Made by a program: the position numbers and the translations under genes. A stretch of 64,000 bases of DNA from NCBI GenBank assembly GCA_963770895.1, contig CAVYRF010000001.1:1056001-1120000 (forward strand), read 5' to 3'. Positions 2 through 26,020 of this stretch are shown here, piece after piece; within the stretch, counting starts at the first letter, position 1; each line of letters opens with the position of its first letter. This stretch comes from an uncultured Acidobacteriota bacterium (GTDB lineage: Bacteria > Acidobacteriota > Thermoanaerobaculia > Multivoradales > UBA5704). Under the pieces are notes generated by a model. It was not told the origin of the DNA and did no database searches. It worked only from the letters and a program-made list of their open reading frames with translations.

Positions 2-3000
2 GACCTCTATCCGCTTTCGCCCCTGCAGCAGGGGCTGCTTTTCGATAGCCTCGCCTCGCAACGCGGTCACACCTACTTCGAACAGTACACACTCGCCTTT
101 TCCGGCGATCTCGACGCCGCAGCCTTCATGCGGGCGTGGCAGCGGGTGGTGGATCGCCACCCCGTACTGCGCACCAGCTTCCATTGGGAGCGCCTCGACG
201 AACCGTTGCAGCGGGTGCACGGCGCGGCCGCGTTGCCCTGGCAGAGCCTCGACTGGAGCGGCGCCAGCGCTGCCGAAGTACGCCGCCGGCTCGACGAGCT
301 GCGCGGCGCCGACCGCGCGCAGGGCTTCGACCTCAGCCGCCCGCCGTTGATGCGCGGCACGTTGGTGCGGACCGGCGAGCGCGAGGCGCGCTTCGTGTGG
401 AGCTTTCACCACCTGCTGCTCGACGGATGGTGCTTCGCGCTGATCTGGCAGGAGGTCTTTGCGCTCTACGAGGCCGACCGCCGAGGTGAGGTGGCGGAGC
501 TGCCACGGCGCCGCCCCTATCGCGACTACATCGCCTGGCTGCAGCGCCAGGACTTCGCCGCGGCCGAGCGCTATTGGCGTGCGAACCTCGCGGGCTACGA
601 GCCGGTGGAGATCGGCTTCGACTCCGACGCCGGCACCGCAGGCAGCGGAGCGGGAGACGAGGCCGCGGTGGAGGCGTTCGCCGAGCGGCAGCTGACGCTG
701 CCGGCAGTGCTCACCGCCGCGCTGCAAGCGATGGGCGCGGCGCGCCACCTCACCCCCGGCACTCTCGTCCAGGCGGCCTGGGCACTGTTGCTGGCGCGCT
801 GGACCGACCGCGAGGAGGCGTGCTTCGGTGCCGTGGTCTCCGGCCGGCCGCCGGAGATCCCGGGCGTCGATGCGATGATCGGACTGTTCATCAATACCCT
901 GCCCCTGCGCATCGAGATTGACGGCGCGCAGCCCCTCGATGACTGGCTGCGGCGCCTGCAGTCGCAGGCCATCGAGATGCGCCAGTTCGAGCACTGCCGG
1001 CTGGTAGACGTCCAGCGTTGGGGTGGCCTGCCGGCCGGCGCCGCGCCGTTCAGCAGTTTGCTCAGCTATCAGAACTATCCGTTCGAGGTCCGCCCGGATG
1101 ATGACGGCCTTGCGGTGACCGGCTTGGAGGTCGCGGCGTCGAACCGCTTTCCCCTGGTGCTCGTGGTGGTGCCCGGGCAACGGCTGCTGCTGCGCTTGCG
1201 ACACGACCGCCGCCACGATGGACCCAAGGTGGAGCGGCTGCTCGGCCAGCTGCAGAGCCTGCTTGCAGCCTTTGCCGATGTCGACCTCGGTGGCGTCTCA
1301 CGGAGCGCCGCGGTGCCTCTGGCCGCCCTGCCGCTGCTCAGGCCCGCTGAAAGCCACCAGATCCTTACGGAGTGGAACGCCACGGCGCCCGGCGCCGTGG
1401 CGGCGGATGACGCCGCCGCCGTCTGCGTACACCGGCTTTTCGAGCGCTGGGCGCGGCTCACCCCCGACGCGCCGGCCGTGGTGTTCGAGAACGAGCGGCT
1501 TACCTACGGCGGGCTCGATCGGCTGGCGAACGGCTGGGCCCACCACCTGCGGCGGCTGGGCGTCGGTCCCGAGACGGTGGTCGGCCTGTGCTGCGAGCGC
1601 TCACTGGCCATGATCGTGGGTATGTTCGCTGTGCTCAAGGCGGGAGGCGCCTACCTGCCTCTCGAACCCGCCTTGCCGGCCGAGCGTCTGAAATTCATGA
1701 TGAGCGCGGCCGGCGCCGAGCTGGTGCTTGGCGAAGGCCGGCTCGCCGCCACGTTCGACGAGCTGCCGGGTGGCCATGGGGTCCGTTTCCTCGCCCTCGA
1801 AACCGACGCCGGCAGCGGAGTGCCATCGCCTCGCGGCATGGCACCCTCCTGCGGAGTGAGCGCCGGCAACCTCGCCTATGTCCTCTTCACCTCAGGCTCG
1901 ACCGGCCGGCCCAAAGGCGTGGCGGTCGAACATCGCCAGCTCGCCGCTTATCTCTCGGGCATCGTGCCGCACCTCGGAGCGGCGGGCGCGGGCGGCAGCT
2001 TCGCGACCGTCTCCACTTTTGCCGCCGACCTTGGCAATACGGCGGTCTTTCCGGCCCTCACCGGCGGCGGCTGCCTCCACGTCATTGCGCGCCCGCGCCT
2101 CCAGGATCCGGCGGCGATGGCCGAGGTCATGGCCGGCGAAGCAATCGAGGGTCTGAAGATAGTGCCCTCCCACCTCGCCGCCCTGCTCGCCGGCGCGGAG
2201 CCCGCGGCAGTGCTGCCGTCTCGATGTCTGGCGCTCGGCGGCGAGGCGCTGTCGTGGGAGCTGGCCACGCGGCTGGACGTGCTGGCGCCAGCCTGCCTCA
2301 AGCTCAATCACTACGGTCCGACCGAAACCACGGTCGGCGTTGCCACCTATCGTTGGACGGCGGGCGAGCGGCGGCCGGCGGCGCGCACGGTGCCGATCGG
2401 GCGACCGCTCGCCGGCGCACGCGCCTACGTGCTCGACCGTGATGCGCGACCGGTACCGCTAGGAGCCGACGGCGAGCTGTACCTCGGCGGCGGCGGCCTG
2501 GCTCGCGGCTACATCGGTCGTCCTGACCTTACCGCCGAGCGTTTCGTGCCGGAACCCTTTGGCGATCGCCCGGGAGGAAGGCTCTATCGCACCGGCGATC
2601 GGGTGCGCCTGCTGGACGATGGCAATCTTGAGTTCCGTGGCCGGGTAGATTCCCAGATAAAGGTGCGTGGCTACCGCGTCGAGCCTGCCGAAATCGAGGC
2701 CGTTCTGTGCCGTCATCCGGCGGTACGCCGGGCGGCGCTTGTGGCCCGCGAGGACCGGCCCGGCGACCGACGCCTGGTGGCCTACGTCGTGCTCGCGCCC
2801 GGCGCCGCGGCGGGTGGCGACGCCGGCCTGATGCTGCGCGCGTGGGCGGGTTCGGAGCTTCCCGAATACATGATTCCCGAAACGGTCGTCGTGCTCGATG
2901 CCATGCCGCTGACGCCCAACGGCAAGCTCGATCGGACCGCCCTGCCGGAGCCGGGAACGGCGCCGATCGGCGCTGAGCAGGTGGCGCCCCGCGACCTGAT

Positions 3001-4057
3001 GGAGCTGCGCCTCGTCACGCTCTGGCAGGAGCTGCTCAAGGTACGACCAATCGGCGTGACGCAGGACTTCTTCGCTCTCGGTGGCAACTCCATGGATGCG
3101 GTGCGGCTGCTGGCCCGCCTGCACAAGCAGTTCGGGCGCCGCCTGTCGATCGCGCGGCTGGTCGAGGGCTCGACCGTCGAGGGATTGGCGGTGCTGCTGC
3201 GCCGGGAGGAGAGGCAGCCAGCCTCGTCCCTCGTGCCGCTGCAGCCGCGCGGCTTCCATCGTCCGCTGTTCTGCGTCCAACCTTCGGGAGCGCTCTGCTA
3301 TCTCGACCTCGTGCGCTGCCTGCCGGCCGACCAGCCGGTCTACGGCCTGCAAGCAGCGGCCGTCGGCGGGGGGGAGAGCGCGGCGCCGGCGACGGTGCCG
3401 GAGATGGCCGCCCGCTACCTCGCGGCGCTGCGCGACGTGCAGCAGGCGGGTCCTTATCGCCTCGCCGGCTGGTCGATGGGCGGCTCGGTGGCCTACGAGA
3501 TGGCGTGCCAGTTGACGGCCGCCGGCGAAGCCGTCGAGCTGTTGGCGCTGATCGATTCGCGGGTGGTGCAGGAGGCCGAGCGCCGGGAGGAAGTGGACGA
3601 GAATCGGCTGGTCGAAAACCTCGCCATGGAAATGAACCTGCCGCTCTCCGATCTCGGTTGCGCCTGGGGAGAGGCGGTCGGGCAGGGACTCGACGCGCAG
3701 CTAACGCTCCTTTTCCTGCATGCCAAACGGCTCGGGCTGCTGCCGCCGGATCTCGATATGGCGCAGATCCACCAGCACTTTTCCCTATTGCGATACCAAG
3801 GCATTGCGATTCGCACCTACCTGCCGCGGACTTACCCGGGACGCCTCTTGCTTTTGCGGGGCAGCGAACGGCCGGGGCCGGCAGGCGGCGATCCGAGCCT
3901 GGGGTGGAGTGCGCTTGCAGCCGGCGGTGTCGAGATCCGGAAGATTCCTGGCGACCATTTCACATTGCTCAAACCACCGAACGTCCAAACCTTGGCGGAC
4001 GCCCTCGTGGCAGCCCTCGCGGCCTGCGGCGCGGACGACGTCAGTGAAGGCGGCTAG
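2..4057 (+). CDS. NRPS terminal module C-A-T-TE (5' partial, gene begins upstream of the window)
   Basis: Frame is open from base 2 (DLYPLSPLQQGLLF, C1 motif). HHLLLDGW C-domain core; A-domain motifs YVLFTSGSTGRPKG, YGPTE, YRTGD, NGKLDR; T domain FFALGGNSM; TE GWSMGG and C-terminal GDHF. Confidence 0.97.
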   Translation, partial: DLYPLSPLQQGLLFDSLASQRGHTYFEQYTLAFSGDLDAAAFMRAWQRVVDRHPVLRTSFHWERLDEPLQRVHGAAALPWQSLDWSGASAAEVRRRLDELRGADRAQGFDLSRPPLMRGTLVRTGEREARFVWSFHHLLLDGWCFALIWQEVFALYEADRRGEVAELPRRRPYRDYIAWLQRQDFAAAERYWRANLAGYEPVEIGFDSDAGTAGSGAGDEAAVEAFAERQLTLPAVLTAALQAMGAARHLTPGTLVQAAWALLLARWTDREEACFGAVVSGRPPEIPGVDAMIGLFINTLPLRIEIDGAQPLDDWLRRLQSQAIEMRQFEHCRLVDVQRWGGLPAGAAPFSSLLSYQNYPFEVRPDDDGLAVTGLEVAASNRFPLVLVVVPGQRLLLRLRHDRRHDGPKVERLLGQLQSLLAAFADVDLGGVSRSAAVPLAALPLLRPAESHQILTEWNATAPGAVAADDAAAVCVHRLFERWARLTPDAPAVVFENERLTYGGLDRLANGWAHHLRRLGVGPETVVGLCCERSLAMIVGMFAVLKAGGAYLPLEPALPAERLKFMMSAAGAELVLGEGRLAATFDELPGGHGVRFLALETDAGSGVPSPRGMAPSCGVSAGNLAYVLFTSGSTGRPKGVAVEHRQLAAYLSGIVPHLGAAGAGGSFATVSTFAADLGNTAVFPALTGGGCLHVIARPRLQDPAAMAEVMAGEAIEGLKIVPSHLAALLAGAEPAAVLPSRCLALGGEALSWELATRLDVLAPACLKLNHYGPTETTVGVATYRWTAGERRPAARTVPIGRPLAGARAYVLDRDARPVPLGADGELYLGGGGLARGYIGRPDLTAERFVPEPFGDRPGGRLYRTGDRVRLLDDGNLEFRGRVDSQIKVRGYRVEPAEIEAVLCRHPAVRRAALVAREDRPGDRRLVAYVVLAPGAAAGGDAGLMLRAWAGSELPEYMIPETVVVLDAMPLTPNGKLDRTALPEPGTAPIGAEQVAPRDLMELRLVTLWQELLKVRPIGVTQDFFALGGNSMDAVRLLARLHKQFGRRLSIARLVEGSTVEGLAVLLRREERQPASSLVPLQPRGFHRPLFCVQPSGALCYLDLVRCLPADQPVYGLQAAAVGGGESAAPATVPEMAARYLAALRDVQQAGPYRLAGWSMGGSVAYEMACQLTAAGEAVELLALIDSRVVQEAERREEVDENRLVENLAMEMNLPLSDLGCAWGEAVGQGLDAQLTLLFLHAKRLGLLPPDLDMAQIHQHFSLLRYQGIAIRTYLPRTYPGRLLLLRGSERPGPAGGDPSLGWSALAAGGVEIRKIPGDHFTLLKPPNVQTLADALVAALAACGADDVSEGG

Positions 4058-7558: not shown

Positions 7559-7571
7559 GGCAAGACAAGAC

Positions 7572-8717
7572 ATGAGCAACCTTGCGGCCGTCGAAGCGGC
7601 ATTGGCGTGTCATCCAGAGGTTGCCGAGGCGGTGGTGGCGGCGTCCGGCAGGGTGGGTGAGGCGGGCAAGGAAGGCACCTGGGCTTGGATTGTGCGGCGT
7701 GACGCGGCCCGCTGCGGCCCGCCGCACCGCCTTCCCTGTGGGCTCACGGTCTTCCAGCTCAATCAGAACGAAACCGATCACCTCTACCGCCAGATCTTCG
7801 AGGATCTCATTTACCTCCGCCACGGAATCGCCCTTCCCGACGACGCCTGCATACTCGACATCGGTGCGAACATCGGGCTGTTCACGCTCTTCGCACACTC
7901 CTGCTGCGAGCGAGCACGCGTCGTCGCTTGCGAACCCAGTCCCCATGCCTTCGAGCGGCTGCGACGCAACGCCGAACGCTACGGCCTCGCGGTCGTGGCC
8001 GAGCCGTGCGCGGTCTTCGACCGCGAGGGGATGGCGCCCTTCAGCGTCTATCCCCGCGCCTCCGTCATGTCGGGACTCTTCGTCGATCCGGCGGCGGAGG
8101 AGCGGCTGTTTCGCACTTTCGCCGGCGAGCAGCTGCGAGAGGAGGGGGACCGGGAGATCATCGCCGCCGCCATCGACGAAATGGCCGCGGGCCGCTTCGC
8201 CGTCGAGGTCGTTGAAAGGCCCCTGCGAACGGTTTCGAGCATCTTGCGCGAGCGGGCCATCGCACGCGTCGACCTGCTCAAGATCGATGCCGAAAAGAGC
8301 GAGCGTGAGGTGTTCGCCGGAATCGCGGAGGATGATTGGCCGAAGATCCTCCAGGTTACCGCCGAGGTGCACCGCGACGATTGGGTCGCCGAGATCACAG
8401 CCCTCCTTGCGGCCCGTGGCTTCACCGTCGCCAGCGAGCAGGATTCAACGATGCGCGATACCGAAATCCACCACCTCTACGCGCGCCGCACCCGGCCCGA
8501 GGATGGCAGGGTCTGGCATGAGCGCCCCTGGCGCACCCTCGTGCCCGCCGCACCGCCTCCGCCCCTGGCGACCCTCGACGCGCTGCGCGACTCCTTGCGC
8601 GAGCTCATCTGGCGCACCCTGCCCGGCGCCCCAGTTCCGGCCGGCTTCACCTTCCTCGACCGCCTGCCGCGGCTTGCCGGCGGCAAGGTCGACCGCGCCG
8701 CCCTGCCGCAGCCCTGA
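7572..8717 (+). CDS. FkbM-family O-methyltransferase flanked by adenylation-domain C-terminal subdomain segments
   Basis: LDIGANIGLF, ACEPSP, VDLLKIDAEKSE (FkbM). N-terminal LAAVEAALACHPEVAEAVV and C-terminal LPGAPVPAGFTFLDRLPRLAGGKVDRAALPQP resemble A8-A10 segments. Confidence 0.88.
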   Translation: MSNLAAVEAALACHPEVAEAVVAASGRVGEAGKEGTWAWIVRRDAARCGPPHRLPCGLTVFQLNQNETDHLYRQIFEDLIYLRHGIALPDDACILDIGANIGLFTLFAHSCCERARVVACEPSPHAFERLRRNAERYGLAVVAEPCAVFDREGMAPFSVYPRASVMSGLFVDPAAEERLFRTFAGEQLREEGDREIIAAAIDEMAAGRFAVEVVERPLRTVSSILRERAIARVDLLKIDAEKSEREVFAGIAEDDWPKILQVTAEVHRDDWVAEITALLAARGFTVASEQDSTMRDTEIHHLYARRTRPEDGRVWHERPWRTLVPAAPPPPLATLDALRDSLRELIWRTLPGAPVPAGFTFLDRLPRLAGGKVDRAALPQP

Positions 8718-9040: not shown

Positions 9041-9171
9041 CTGGGGGGAGGATAGCAAATCGCGGAGGGCTGGCGGCCGTTGGAGGCTGCTTTGGCGGCG
9101 CGGCTTTGGGAGGCCCTTGTCGCGGTGGGGGGCGCTGGCAGCGGCGGATGTTGGTTGCAGCGGTTCTGGCA

Positions 9172-19350: not shown

Positions 19351-19576
19351 CGGGTTGGACATCAACTTCTCTGCATGCTCGAAAAGCCTTCAATCGTCAG
19401 TTGAAGGAAGGCGCGCCTGTCGGGAGAAGACGCGGCGCGGGCAACCGCCGCTGGCTGGCATTTCCCCGGATGCCGGGCACCTGCGCCGCCGTCGCGCCGC
19501 CTGTCGGGAGTGAGCGGCAGGAGGGCTCCGGCGCACATACAGAGGTGATGGCCGGGCAGAAAGCTTGGAGTCAACC

Positions 19577-26016
<6,440 letters not shown>

Positions 26017-26020
<4 letters not shown>

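Follow-up and report, generated by a model that had tools for sequence, protein, structure and literature searches.

A stand-alone FkbM methyltransferase flanked by adenylation subdomain pieces, related to Asp-coded interrupted adenylation domains, in an uncultured Acidobacteriota bacterium

A window of 64,000 nucleotides (nt), G000:C1:1056001-1120000 in the genome of an uncultured Acidobacteriota bacterium, was analysed around a single gene that ends the gene row behind a large non-ribosomal peptide synthetase (NRPS) gene. This gene encodes a methyltransferase of the FkbM family enclosed by two pieces of the C-terminal subdomain (Asub) of an adenylation (A) domain, and it stands alone. The best explanation, and the one towards which we lean, is that the product is an O-methyltransferase dependent on S-adenosylmethionine (SAM), excised from an Asp-activating interrupted A domain and acting in trans to give 3-methoxy-Asp. 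The gene belongs to a small clade of similar free proteins nested among embedded ones, and its hydroxylase partner is conserved with it.

Anatomy of the protein

The gene (Table 1) begins with the ATG at 7572, the first start codon past the upstream in-frame stop, and its open reading frame (ORF) comprises 381 codons. In a profile search, residues 96-284 match the FkbM family PF05050 (E 2.5e-17, 64.0 bits, cut-off 22.7) and TIGR01444 gives 95 bits against a cut-off of 37.7. Near the N-terminus, residues 7-24 align with positions 2-19 of the AMP-binding_C profile PF13193 at 23.0 bits, below the cut-off of 24.5, a match that is weak when taken alone. The 41 C-terminal residues align with the A9/A10 end of LgrA (6mfy) in a phmmer search of solved A domains (E 4.1e-7) and, at E 0.07-0.6, with GrsA, SrfA-C and TycA/B. 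An alignment with ten embedded relatives and the A domains of the cluster itself maps both flanks to the A C-subdomain, one before and one after the a8-a9 insertion.

The anatomy is equally defined by what the protein does not contain. The AMP-binding core is missing, with no PF00501 match in a protein that begins past motif A8, and there is no PP-binding match for a thiolation (T) domain, the C-terminus reading ALPQP. No A8 hairpin (GRxDxQVKxRGxRxE) is present, and nothing similar is encoded by the 35 in-frame codons upstream, a stretch that runs into the end of the preceding permease gene. The N-terminal piece corresponds to the helix and strands downstream of core motif A8, not to A8 itself. 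In the C-terminal flank the A9 Tyr is changed to Ala and the A10 Lys is kept.

The initial annotation, made from the letters and translations of this DNA, had described an FkbM methyltransferase between A-subdomain pieces as a separate gene with its own ATG and stop, devoid of A core and T domain, and the profiles, the alignment and the ORF agree with it. Its labels for the flanks need one correction: the A9/A10-like segment stands, whereas the supposed A8-like segment starts after A8 and has no hairpin. The profile scan that it proposed likewise recovers the methyltransferase (as PF05050) and leaves AMP-binding_C under its threshold.

The gene structure was compared with public sequencing data. 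In three public runs from two studies (soil or organism), one of which may be the sample of origin, contig pieces span the junction between the permease stop and the methyltransferase start without insertions or deletions, and a piece from one of the three also spans the methyltransferase stop codon. At position 7567, in the spacer before the start codon, the window has A and the contigs of the three runs have G.

Relatives and distribution

A search for relatives of similar length returned 60 matches, among them five proteins of the same architecture and ends (P0002-P0006; 377-425 residues, 63-73% identical, all metagenomic), which start directly after A8, stop at or a few residues past LPxP and carry no T domain. 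The longer relatives amounted to 218 matches, of which the best 120 were listed. The first of these, P0061 (778 residues, 60% identical), is the same protein fused to a C-terminal TauD domain; below it rank full NRPS modules whose A domain contains the methyltransferase, such as P0062 (1804 residues, 61%). The window protein and its six stand-alone relatives are 57-86% identical to each other, lie in varied gene orders and have intact frames.

At E<=1e-30, 1,597 members of a library of 1.84 billion representatives match the window protein. The best 150 include a single short protein matched end to end, P0002, the others measuring 539-7,027 residues, so that the embedded form is common and the free form rare. 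Among 401 genomes sampled from the phylum, G000 being one of them, no further free flanked form was found; 13 have a match at E<=1e-30, and the best match outside G000 is 45% identical and lies inside a frame of 2,901 residues. A single-protein query of the GTDB species set returned 0 relatives and no free flanked form.

A further group of proteins (P0359, of 725 residues, P0325, P0352, P0389, P0410 and P0372) begins at or just after A8 and runs Asub-FkbM-Asub before continuing with T and a thioesterase (TE) or with T, a condensation (C) domain and further domains; P0359 itself starts with MGEIE and ends in the thioesterase. Proteins of this type may be a second kind without an A core, in the sense of a split A domain, or may come from genes truncated where a contig stops.

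Descent from Asp-coded interrupted A domains

In 74 relatives the specificity code was derived from the A core that immediately precedes the embedded methyltransferase. Codes of the DLTK/DLSK type, called Asp codes below, are carried by 36 of these 74 A domains, including all eight closest (P0062-P0069). The remaining codes include types that we take to be those for Ser, Thr, Gln and Glu.

A maximum-likelihood tree of 101 rows was computed by an IQ-TREE quick search under LG+G4, with support from the Shimodaira-Hasegawa-like approximate likelihood ratio test (SH-aLRT) only. The rows comprised the seven stand-alone forms, the 74 embedded forms, 10 of 19 core-only stand-alone proteins and every sixth of 63 other forms. 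The seven stand-alone forms, the fusion included, make up one clade (SH-aLRT 100), whose sister is the embedded, Asp-coded P0062 (support 99), and this group is in turn nested in further embedded Asp-coded forms (support 99 and 94). The core-only FkbM proteins of about 270 residues fall in a separate clade, together with forms linked to FkbH or to polyketide synthases (PKS). Because the stand-alone clade is nested within embedded Asp-coded forms, the tree indicates a single origin of the free form, from an interrupted A domain with an Asp code, followed by diversification. The excised Asub-methyltransferase-Asub unit suggested in the initial annotation is thereby borne out, as seven proteins in one clade; homologues are not always full-length NRPSs, six relatives of the window protein standing alone as well.

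Constraint and predicted fold

Ratios of non-synonymous to synonymous substitution rates (dN/dS) were obtained from the window gene and its counterparts at loci L007 and L008. The core is the most constrained region, with 0.16-0.19 over 252 codons, followed by the C-flank (0.38-0.43, 44 codons), the N-flank (0.42-0.73, 39-40 codons) and the linker (0.25-0.95, 28 codons); the short length of the flanks makes their values imprecise. Mean pairwise identity within the stand-alone clade is 0.57 for the N-flank, 0.77 for the core and 0.69 for the C-flank, and seven close embedded forms present a similar profile (0.53, 0.65 and 0.59). For the linker the values are 0.54 in the stand-alone clade versus 0.27 in embedded relatives. 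All 29 core columns conserved at >=95% over 101 relatives are retained in the window protein.

The signature residues of adenylation behave differently. The catalytic Lys of A10 is present in 74 of 74 embedded forms versus four of the seven stand-alone ones, the other three having Thr, and the A9 Tyr in 56 of 74 versus none of seven. Since both residues are depleted in the stand-alone forms, the adenylation role of the flanking stubs is lost, and the methyltransferase core, judging from its residues, is intact.

These figures bear on the idea that the gene is functionless today, a decaying remnant left by a deletion in an interrupted A domain. It does lack an A core, the hairpin of A8 and a T domain, and the flanks are under relaxed constraint. 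On the other side stand seven members, 57-86% identical, in different gene orders and with intact frames, a core with a dN/dS of 0.16-0.19 and every family-conserved column kept, a confident predicted model (described below) and one lineage in which the protein was fused to its partner enzyme. A relic is accordingly most improbable to us, and the window gene looks real and functional.

An AlphaFold2 model of the protein was computed from a 53-row alignment. It is predicted with a local distance difference test score (pLDDT) of 91.9 and a predicted TM-score (pTM) of 0.85, with both stubs folded: the N-stub as a helix (2-12) and strands (17-25 and 35-42), the C-stub as a helix (335-349) and a strand (358-362). 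The linker is the least confident part (pLDDT 67 for block 311-320). The top Foldseek match in the PDB is the interrupted A domain of TioS (5wmm_A, E 1.5e-9), with an overall TM-score of 0.20, which is low because the A core has no counterpart in the window protein. The core alone best matches the FkbM structure 2py6 in VIA-align (Z 15.9, root mean square deviation 2.0 over 168 residues). The predicted fold of the fusion P0061 is less well defined, with a pTM of 0.55, a pLDDT of 31-40 for residues 398-452 between the two halves, and stubs of low confidence; it lends no support to a fixed packing of the methyltransferase on TauD and does not speak against binding.

In the 5WMM structure the methyltransferase is described as touching the A C-subdomain only, and the embedded domain of PchE as moving as a rigid body with that subdomain (both in PMC10510592). 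In view of these contact and motion data, the free protein can be regarded as the Asub-methyltransferase rigid unit stripped of the A8 hairpin. The stubs have most likely been retained as a structural platform for folding, because the core evolved to fold against them.

Association with a TauD hydroxylase

In the window, the methyltransferase shares its gene row with a SyrP-like TauD dioxygenase and a permease, and the same genes recur around its relatives. Locus L008, which holds a 64% relative, has the order NRPS (ending T-TE), methyltransferase, TauD and permease, with a 4 nt overlap between methyltransferase and TauD; the fusion P0061 preserves this order, methyltransferase then TauD. At L007 (73% relative) the permease precedes the methyltransferase and the contig ends inside the permease. 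Locus L009, which has embedded forms (54% and 47% identical), displays permease and TauD, followed by an NRPS in which two A(FkbM) domains are Asp-coded. Orthologues of the window TauD occur at L008 (67%), beside the methyltransferase, and at L009 (58%), beside the embedded form; orthologues of the permease adjoin the methyltransferase at L007 (83%) and lie near it at L008 and L009. Given the gene sets shared by the window, L008, P0061, L007 and L009, the same toolkit occurs with the methyltransferase in cis or in trans.

Within the 16-row clade of the tree that contains the window protein, TauD is adjacent or fused wherever the context is readable (window, L008, P0061 and L009). The window TauD is also 56% identical to P0214, named 'syrP protein' by its source. 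The SyrP-like gene and the Asp module invoked in the initial annotation are both present: TauD adjoins the methyltransferase in the window and at L008 and forms one protein with it in P0061, and the neighbouring module has a code, derived from the alignment, that we read as Asp. Across this clade the TauD link holds consistently, the regiochemistry being our inference. TauD P0185 and methyltransferase P0006 may lie on one contig, as may TauD P0229 and NRPS P0068, since their longest contigs agree in length (35296 and 10917), a coincidence to which we give no weight.

Several observations concern the embedded relatives and TauD more widely. Many metagenome relatives are A(FkbM)-T proteins of about 915 residues with the same Asp code (P0085, P0129, P0140, P0144 and P0147, for example). 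TauD is also found fused to NRPS C-termini after a C domain, in P0078, P0325, P0210, P0216, P0241 and similar proteins; P0078, which has a Gln-type code, combines TauD and an FkbM-interrupted A domain in one protein. Next to embedded methyltransferases with codes other than Asp, TauD lies within a few kb in three of five genomes checked (G266, G176 and G137).

Proposed function

The likeliest function of the protein, by analogy with known hydroxylase and methyltransferase pairs, would be in-trans O-methylation of carrier-bound beta-hydroxy-Asp; its substrate, the carrier-bound timing, the order of steps and the product are what we infer from the genes. The proposed route can be summarized as follows. 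The protein goes back to a methyltransferase inserted between A8 and A9 of an Asp-activating A domain of the KtzH type, and in this lineage the inserted domain, with the attached part of the A C-subdomain, became a separate protein. The last module of the cluster (C-A-T-TE) would load Asp onto its carrier T10, and the adjacent TauD dioxygenase would hydroxylate C-3 of the tethered residue. The free methyltransferase would then use SAM on that hydroxyl in trans, yielding 3-methoxy-Asp, after which C10 would condense the residue and the TE domain would release the lipopeptide. The stubs have no adenylation role left and most likely serve as the platform against which the core folds.

A number of results weigh against this proposal. 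The in-trans role and the carrier-bound timing are carried over from relatives. A split of the window's own module 10 in situ is not supported, its A core being 48.5% identical to that of P0062 versus 50-53% to other Asp cores. Constraint is clearly weaker on the stubs (dN/dS 0.38-0.73, 39-44 codons per flank) than on the core, and the A8 hairpin occurs in 10 of 10 embedded forms aligned and is gone from all seven stand-alone ones, so that a conserved docking surface lacks support. Five genomes of the phylum with Asp-coded embedded A(FkbM) domains were also checked for TauD by protein search and PF02668 (L020, L021, L023, L024 and L025, in G038, G034, G194, G174 and G322; FkbM domains 37-43% identical to the window protein). 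Four of them, 94-100% complete, have no TauD gene at all, and the fifth has its TauD genes on other contigs. The presence of an FkbM domain in an Asp-coded module is not, therefore, in itself a sign of beta-methoxy-Asp: TauD hydroxylation must be dispensable for some Asp-coded FkbM domains, and methyl-ester formation or a different hydroxylase is possible in the wider family.

The same genomes lead to the main chemical alternative, in which the side-chain carboxylate of tethered Asp or hydroxy-Asp is methylated to a methyl ester instead of a 3-methoxy ether, TauD hydroxylation being independent. A hydroxyl made by TauD is evidently not required in the four genomes, and Glu-type codes, for example DAKDLGVVD, also occur among the embedded relatives. 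The TauD-less forms are, however, probably members of a sister clade, TauD accompanies the methyltransferase wherever it can be read in the window's own clade, and the FkbM activities listed in PMC9259500 are O-methylations, mostly of hydroxyls, those of hydroxy-Asp (LptK) and hydroxy-Trp (CymP) among them. An ester therefore seems unlikely in the window.

An active enzyme working off the assembly line or at another position, with inert stubs, was likewise considered. It could act on the peptide after release, on free hydroxy-Asp, on the Thr-like residue that module 1 supplies or on the alpha-hydroxy acid of an A-ketoreductase (KR) module: the cluster does offer other hydroxyls (module 1, with code DFWSVGMVF, and two KR-containing modules) and the stubs lack adenylation signatures and the A8 hairpin. 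This reading, which we think quite unlikely, has to be set against the behaviour of the ancestral domains, which act on the amino acid of their own module's carrier (as described in PMC8341866), and against the closest embedded relatives, which are all Asp-coded. The partner's family, TauD enzymes of the SyrP type, is reported to act on carrier-bound Asp (PMC7100376), and the other methylation of the cluster is served by its own embedded methyltransferase in module 8.

Besides in-trans methylation with the stubs as a folding platform, a more active part for the stubs can be imagined. Docking of a stub on the carrier domain or on the module is possible. That the Asub-methyltransferase is a portable plug-in tailoring cassette, with the stub as docking adaptor and trans-acting mimic of an NRPS subdomain, appears doubtful to us; the stub would then engage the Asp module at the A core or A-T linker site visited by the module's own C-subdomain, or at the carrier. 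If it were true, the methyltransferase active site would be placed in the path of the swinging pantetheine arm, and nature would already add methylation to an uninterrupted A domain without re-engineering. The statement of the initial annotation that the unit keeps the T-domain docking surface is not supported: the A8 hairpin and the A9 Tyr are gone from all seven stand-alone proteins and the A10 Lys is replaced in three.

Gene neighbourhood and cluster

The coordinates of the features are collected in Table 1. The row formed by the NRPS, TauD, permease and methyltransferase genes has gaps of 3, 9 and 13 nt, and the methyltransferase, as the last member, ends an operon-like gene row. No clear Shine-Dalgarno sequence is present in the spacer before its start codon, and a scan for terminators and promoters 3' of the gene gave one weak terminator-like site (9133-9146), not above shuffle expectation. 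Further downstream lie unrelated genes (DUF1648/DUF5808, DUF885 and PHO4).

Table 1. Features of the window, with their coordinates and the evidence for them.
Feature	Position	Strand	Evidence or remarks
Free-standing Asub(post-A8)-FkbM-Asub(A9/A10) methyltransferase gene	7572..8717	+	381 residues plus stop; 13 nt after permease stop
N-flank, residues 5-46, post-A8 part of A C-subdomain	7584..7709	+	Sub-threshold PF13193, alignment; folded in model at pLDDT 80-93
FkbM class I methyltransferase core, residues 55-306, SAM motif D96-G98-A99-N100-G102	7734..8489	+	PF05050, TIGR01444, fold match
Pro/Ala-rich linker, residues 307-335, from core back to subdomain	8490..8576	+	Low model confidence, alignment identity
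C-flank, residues 336-381, A9/A10 part ending in LPxP linker motif	8577..8714	+	phmmer, alignment, residue states
3' end of 10,086-residue NRPS gene (G000:C1:1029797-1060057), last module C-A-T-TE	2..4057	+	Condensation, AMP-binding, AMP-binding_C, PP-binding, Thioesterase (Pfam)
TauD/TfdA-family Fe/2-oxoglutarate dioxygenase, SyrP-like, 337 residues	4061..5074	+	PF02668, E 6e-39
ADOP-family duplicated MacB/FtsX-type permease, 824 residues	5084..7558	+	MacB_PCD, FtsX; TIGR03434 884 bits, cut-off 622

Two NRPS genes of 5,481 and 10,086 codons lie upstream, the longer being the one whose last module is in the window, and their domains were mapped using Pfam and phmmer, with the domains of the last module as queries. 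The shorter gene encodes a FAAL-like starter, four C-A-T modules and a terminal C domain. The longer one reads A-KR-T, C-A-KR-T, C-A-T-E, C-A(Methyltransf_25 insert)-T-E, C-A-T-E and C-A-T-TE, where E is an epimerization domain. In the alignment of the cluster's A domains, the last module (module 10) has the code DLTKAGHVG and the A10 Lys. We take DLTKAGHVG to be an Asp code after the Stachelhaus codes, and that of module 1 presumably to be Thr-like.

A role of the stub in completing an A core without subdomain (a split A domain) was rejected. Six standard A domains (modules 1-4, 9 and 10) each have a full Asub match and a T domain; module 7 has a full Asub match as well, with a degenerate A10 motif (GKVDY); in module 8 the C-terminal Asub half sits after the inserted methyltransferase; and the two KR modules finish with their own FAAL-like C-terminal piece. 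As each A domain of the cluster carries its own C-terminal piece, none depends on the stub for completion.

Some features of the cluster and its genome deserve mention in their own right. Residues 26-3713 of the longer NRPS (G000:C1:1029797-1041000), the first two modules of that gene, consist of an A-like N-terminal part, a second FAAL/DIP2-like adenylating domain, KR and T, and a degenerate A10-like motif with its Lys replaced precedes the second adenylating domain. In module 8 (G000:C1:1047000-1049900, residues 5746-6611) the A domain is interrupted at a8-a9 by a Methyltransf_25/11 domain, unlike FkbM; modules 2, 4 and 8 share the unusual code DIFHFGLII. The same genome has two embedded FkbM-interrupted A domains (G000:C2:4122404-4123552 and G000:C2:2134095-2135069, in frames of 7,495 and 3,547 codons) with the Ser-type codes DVWHLSLVD and DVWHASLVD. 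It is very rich in NRPS genes, near which six further TauD paralogues are found. Between 20001 and 26000 in the window the G+C content rises to 0.76-0.78, against about 0.70 around it, coinciding with a 2,151-codon ORF (19565-26020).

Significance

NRPS systems are known to O-methylate side chains in two ways, either through a methyltransferase that sits inside an interrupted A domain or through an ordinary free-standing enzyme. The stand-alone clade is a natural intermediate between them, an embedded domain that left the assembly line with a piece of the subdomain still attached. As the clade is under selection and has kept its hydroxylase partner, and close relatives are embedded with the same partner genes, a matched cis/trans pair is available. 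Such a pair bears on the demands that an inserted tailoring domain makes on its host, on the contribution of the A C-subdomain to carrier recognition by the inserted enzyme, and on the transfer of cassettes for O-methylation of other modules, which is an aim of interrupted-A-domain engineering. The analysis also draws attention to a large group of Asp-coded FkbM-interrupted A domains, some with TauD and some without, whose chemistry may lead to 3-methoxy-Asp or to Asp methyl ester.

Comparison with known systems

The closest described domains are those of the KtzH type (family 2a, A8-Ms(O)-A9, with a type II M domain; Lundy et al. 2020, PMC8341866). They share with the window protein an FkbM-type methyltransferase with the SAM motif D-x-G-x-N-x-G, given for family 2a as DVGx(N/H)xG, and the a8-a9 insertion point in the A C-subdomain, and the window protein is nested among embedded domains of this kind. 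It differs in having no A core (A1-A7), A8 hairpin or cis T domain and in being encoded by a separate gene. The window lineage is moreover Asp-coded, whereas the family 2a paper deals with Ser/Thr substrates only, 'l-Asp' and 'aspart' having 0 occurrences in its main text; where that paper speaks of 'stand-alone' domains, complete interrupted A domains outside modules are meant. The embedded FkbM members listed from MIBiG are KtzH, FrsG, CalA, the aurantimycin NRPS and AmbE, KtzH being the one for O-methyl-Ser (PMC9259500, supplement file 7).

For TioS A4a-M3S-A4b (PDB 5WMM), the likeness lies in the inserted methyltransferase and the A C-subdomain forming, as far as described, the unit that stands alone in the window; the difference is a methyltransferase of another type (N-/S-methylating) within a complete A domain. 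Free FkbM proteins without flanks are on record as well: LptK for 'O-methylation of Asp' in A54145 and CymP for hydroxy-Trp (PMC9259500). LptK resembles the window protein in being a free-standing FkbM enzyme beside an NRPS with the same proposed chemistry, and differs in being core-only, its gene spanning 789 nt with no A-subdomain flanks, according to the same listing. It was compared through this listing, outside the tree, where the core-only relatives group with FkbH/PKS-linked forms, away from the window clade.

In the cystobactamid pathway, the TauD-type CysJ acts first, and CysQ then methylates in trans the hydroxy-Asn bound to CysH; CysQ needs a CysH domain for this, taken by the authors as a protein-protein contact (PMC7966384). 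The order of a TauD-type hydroxylase and a trans O-methyltransferase on a carrier-bound residue of the Asp family, leading to a beta-methoxy residue, is the same as that proposed here; the substrate there is Asn on a stand-alone A-AMDH-T module, and the comparison is at the level of the described pathway. Both routes, LptJ/LptK and CysJ/CysQ, have in the window a counterpart at the level of the genes alone, namely TauD, methyltransferase and an Asp-coded module with its carrier domain. LptK reportedly works with the SyrP-like hydroxylase LptJ in A54145, and SyrP-type hydroxylation of carrier-bound Asp is said to go back to Singh et al. 2008.

In the literature searched, which covered sources outside subscription journals, no description of a free-standing Asub-methyltransferase protein was found, and 3-methoxy-Asp appeared only for cystobactamid/coralmycin, for A54145-type lipopeptides and in one review of marine cyclopeptides. 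The proposed chemistry is already known and it is the format that is new: an inserted domain with its subdomain stubs as a free protein, conserved in a small clade and once fused to the hydroxylase.

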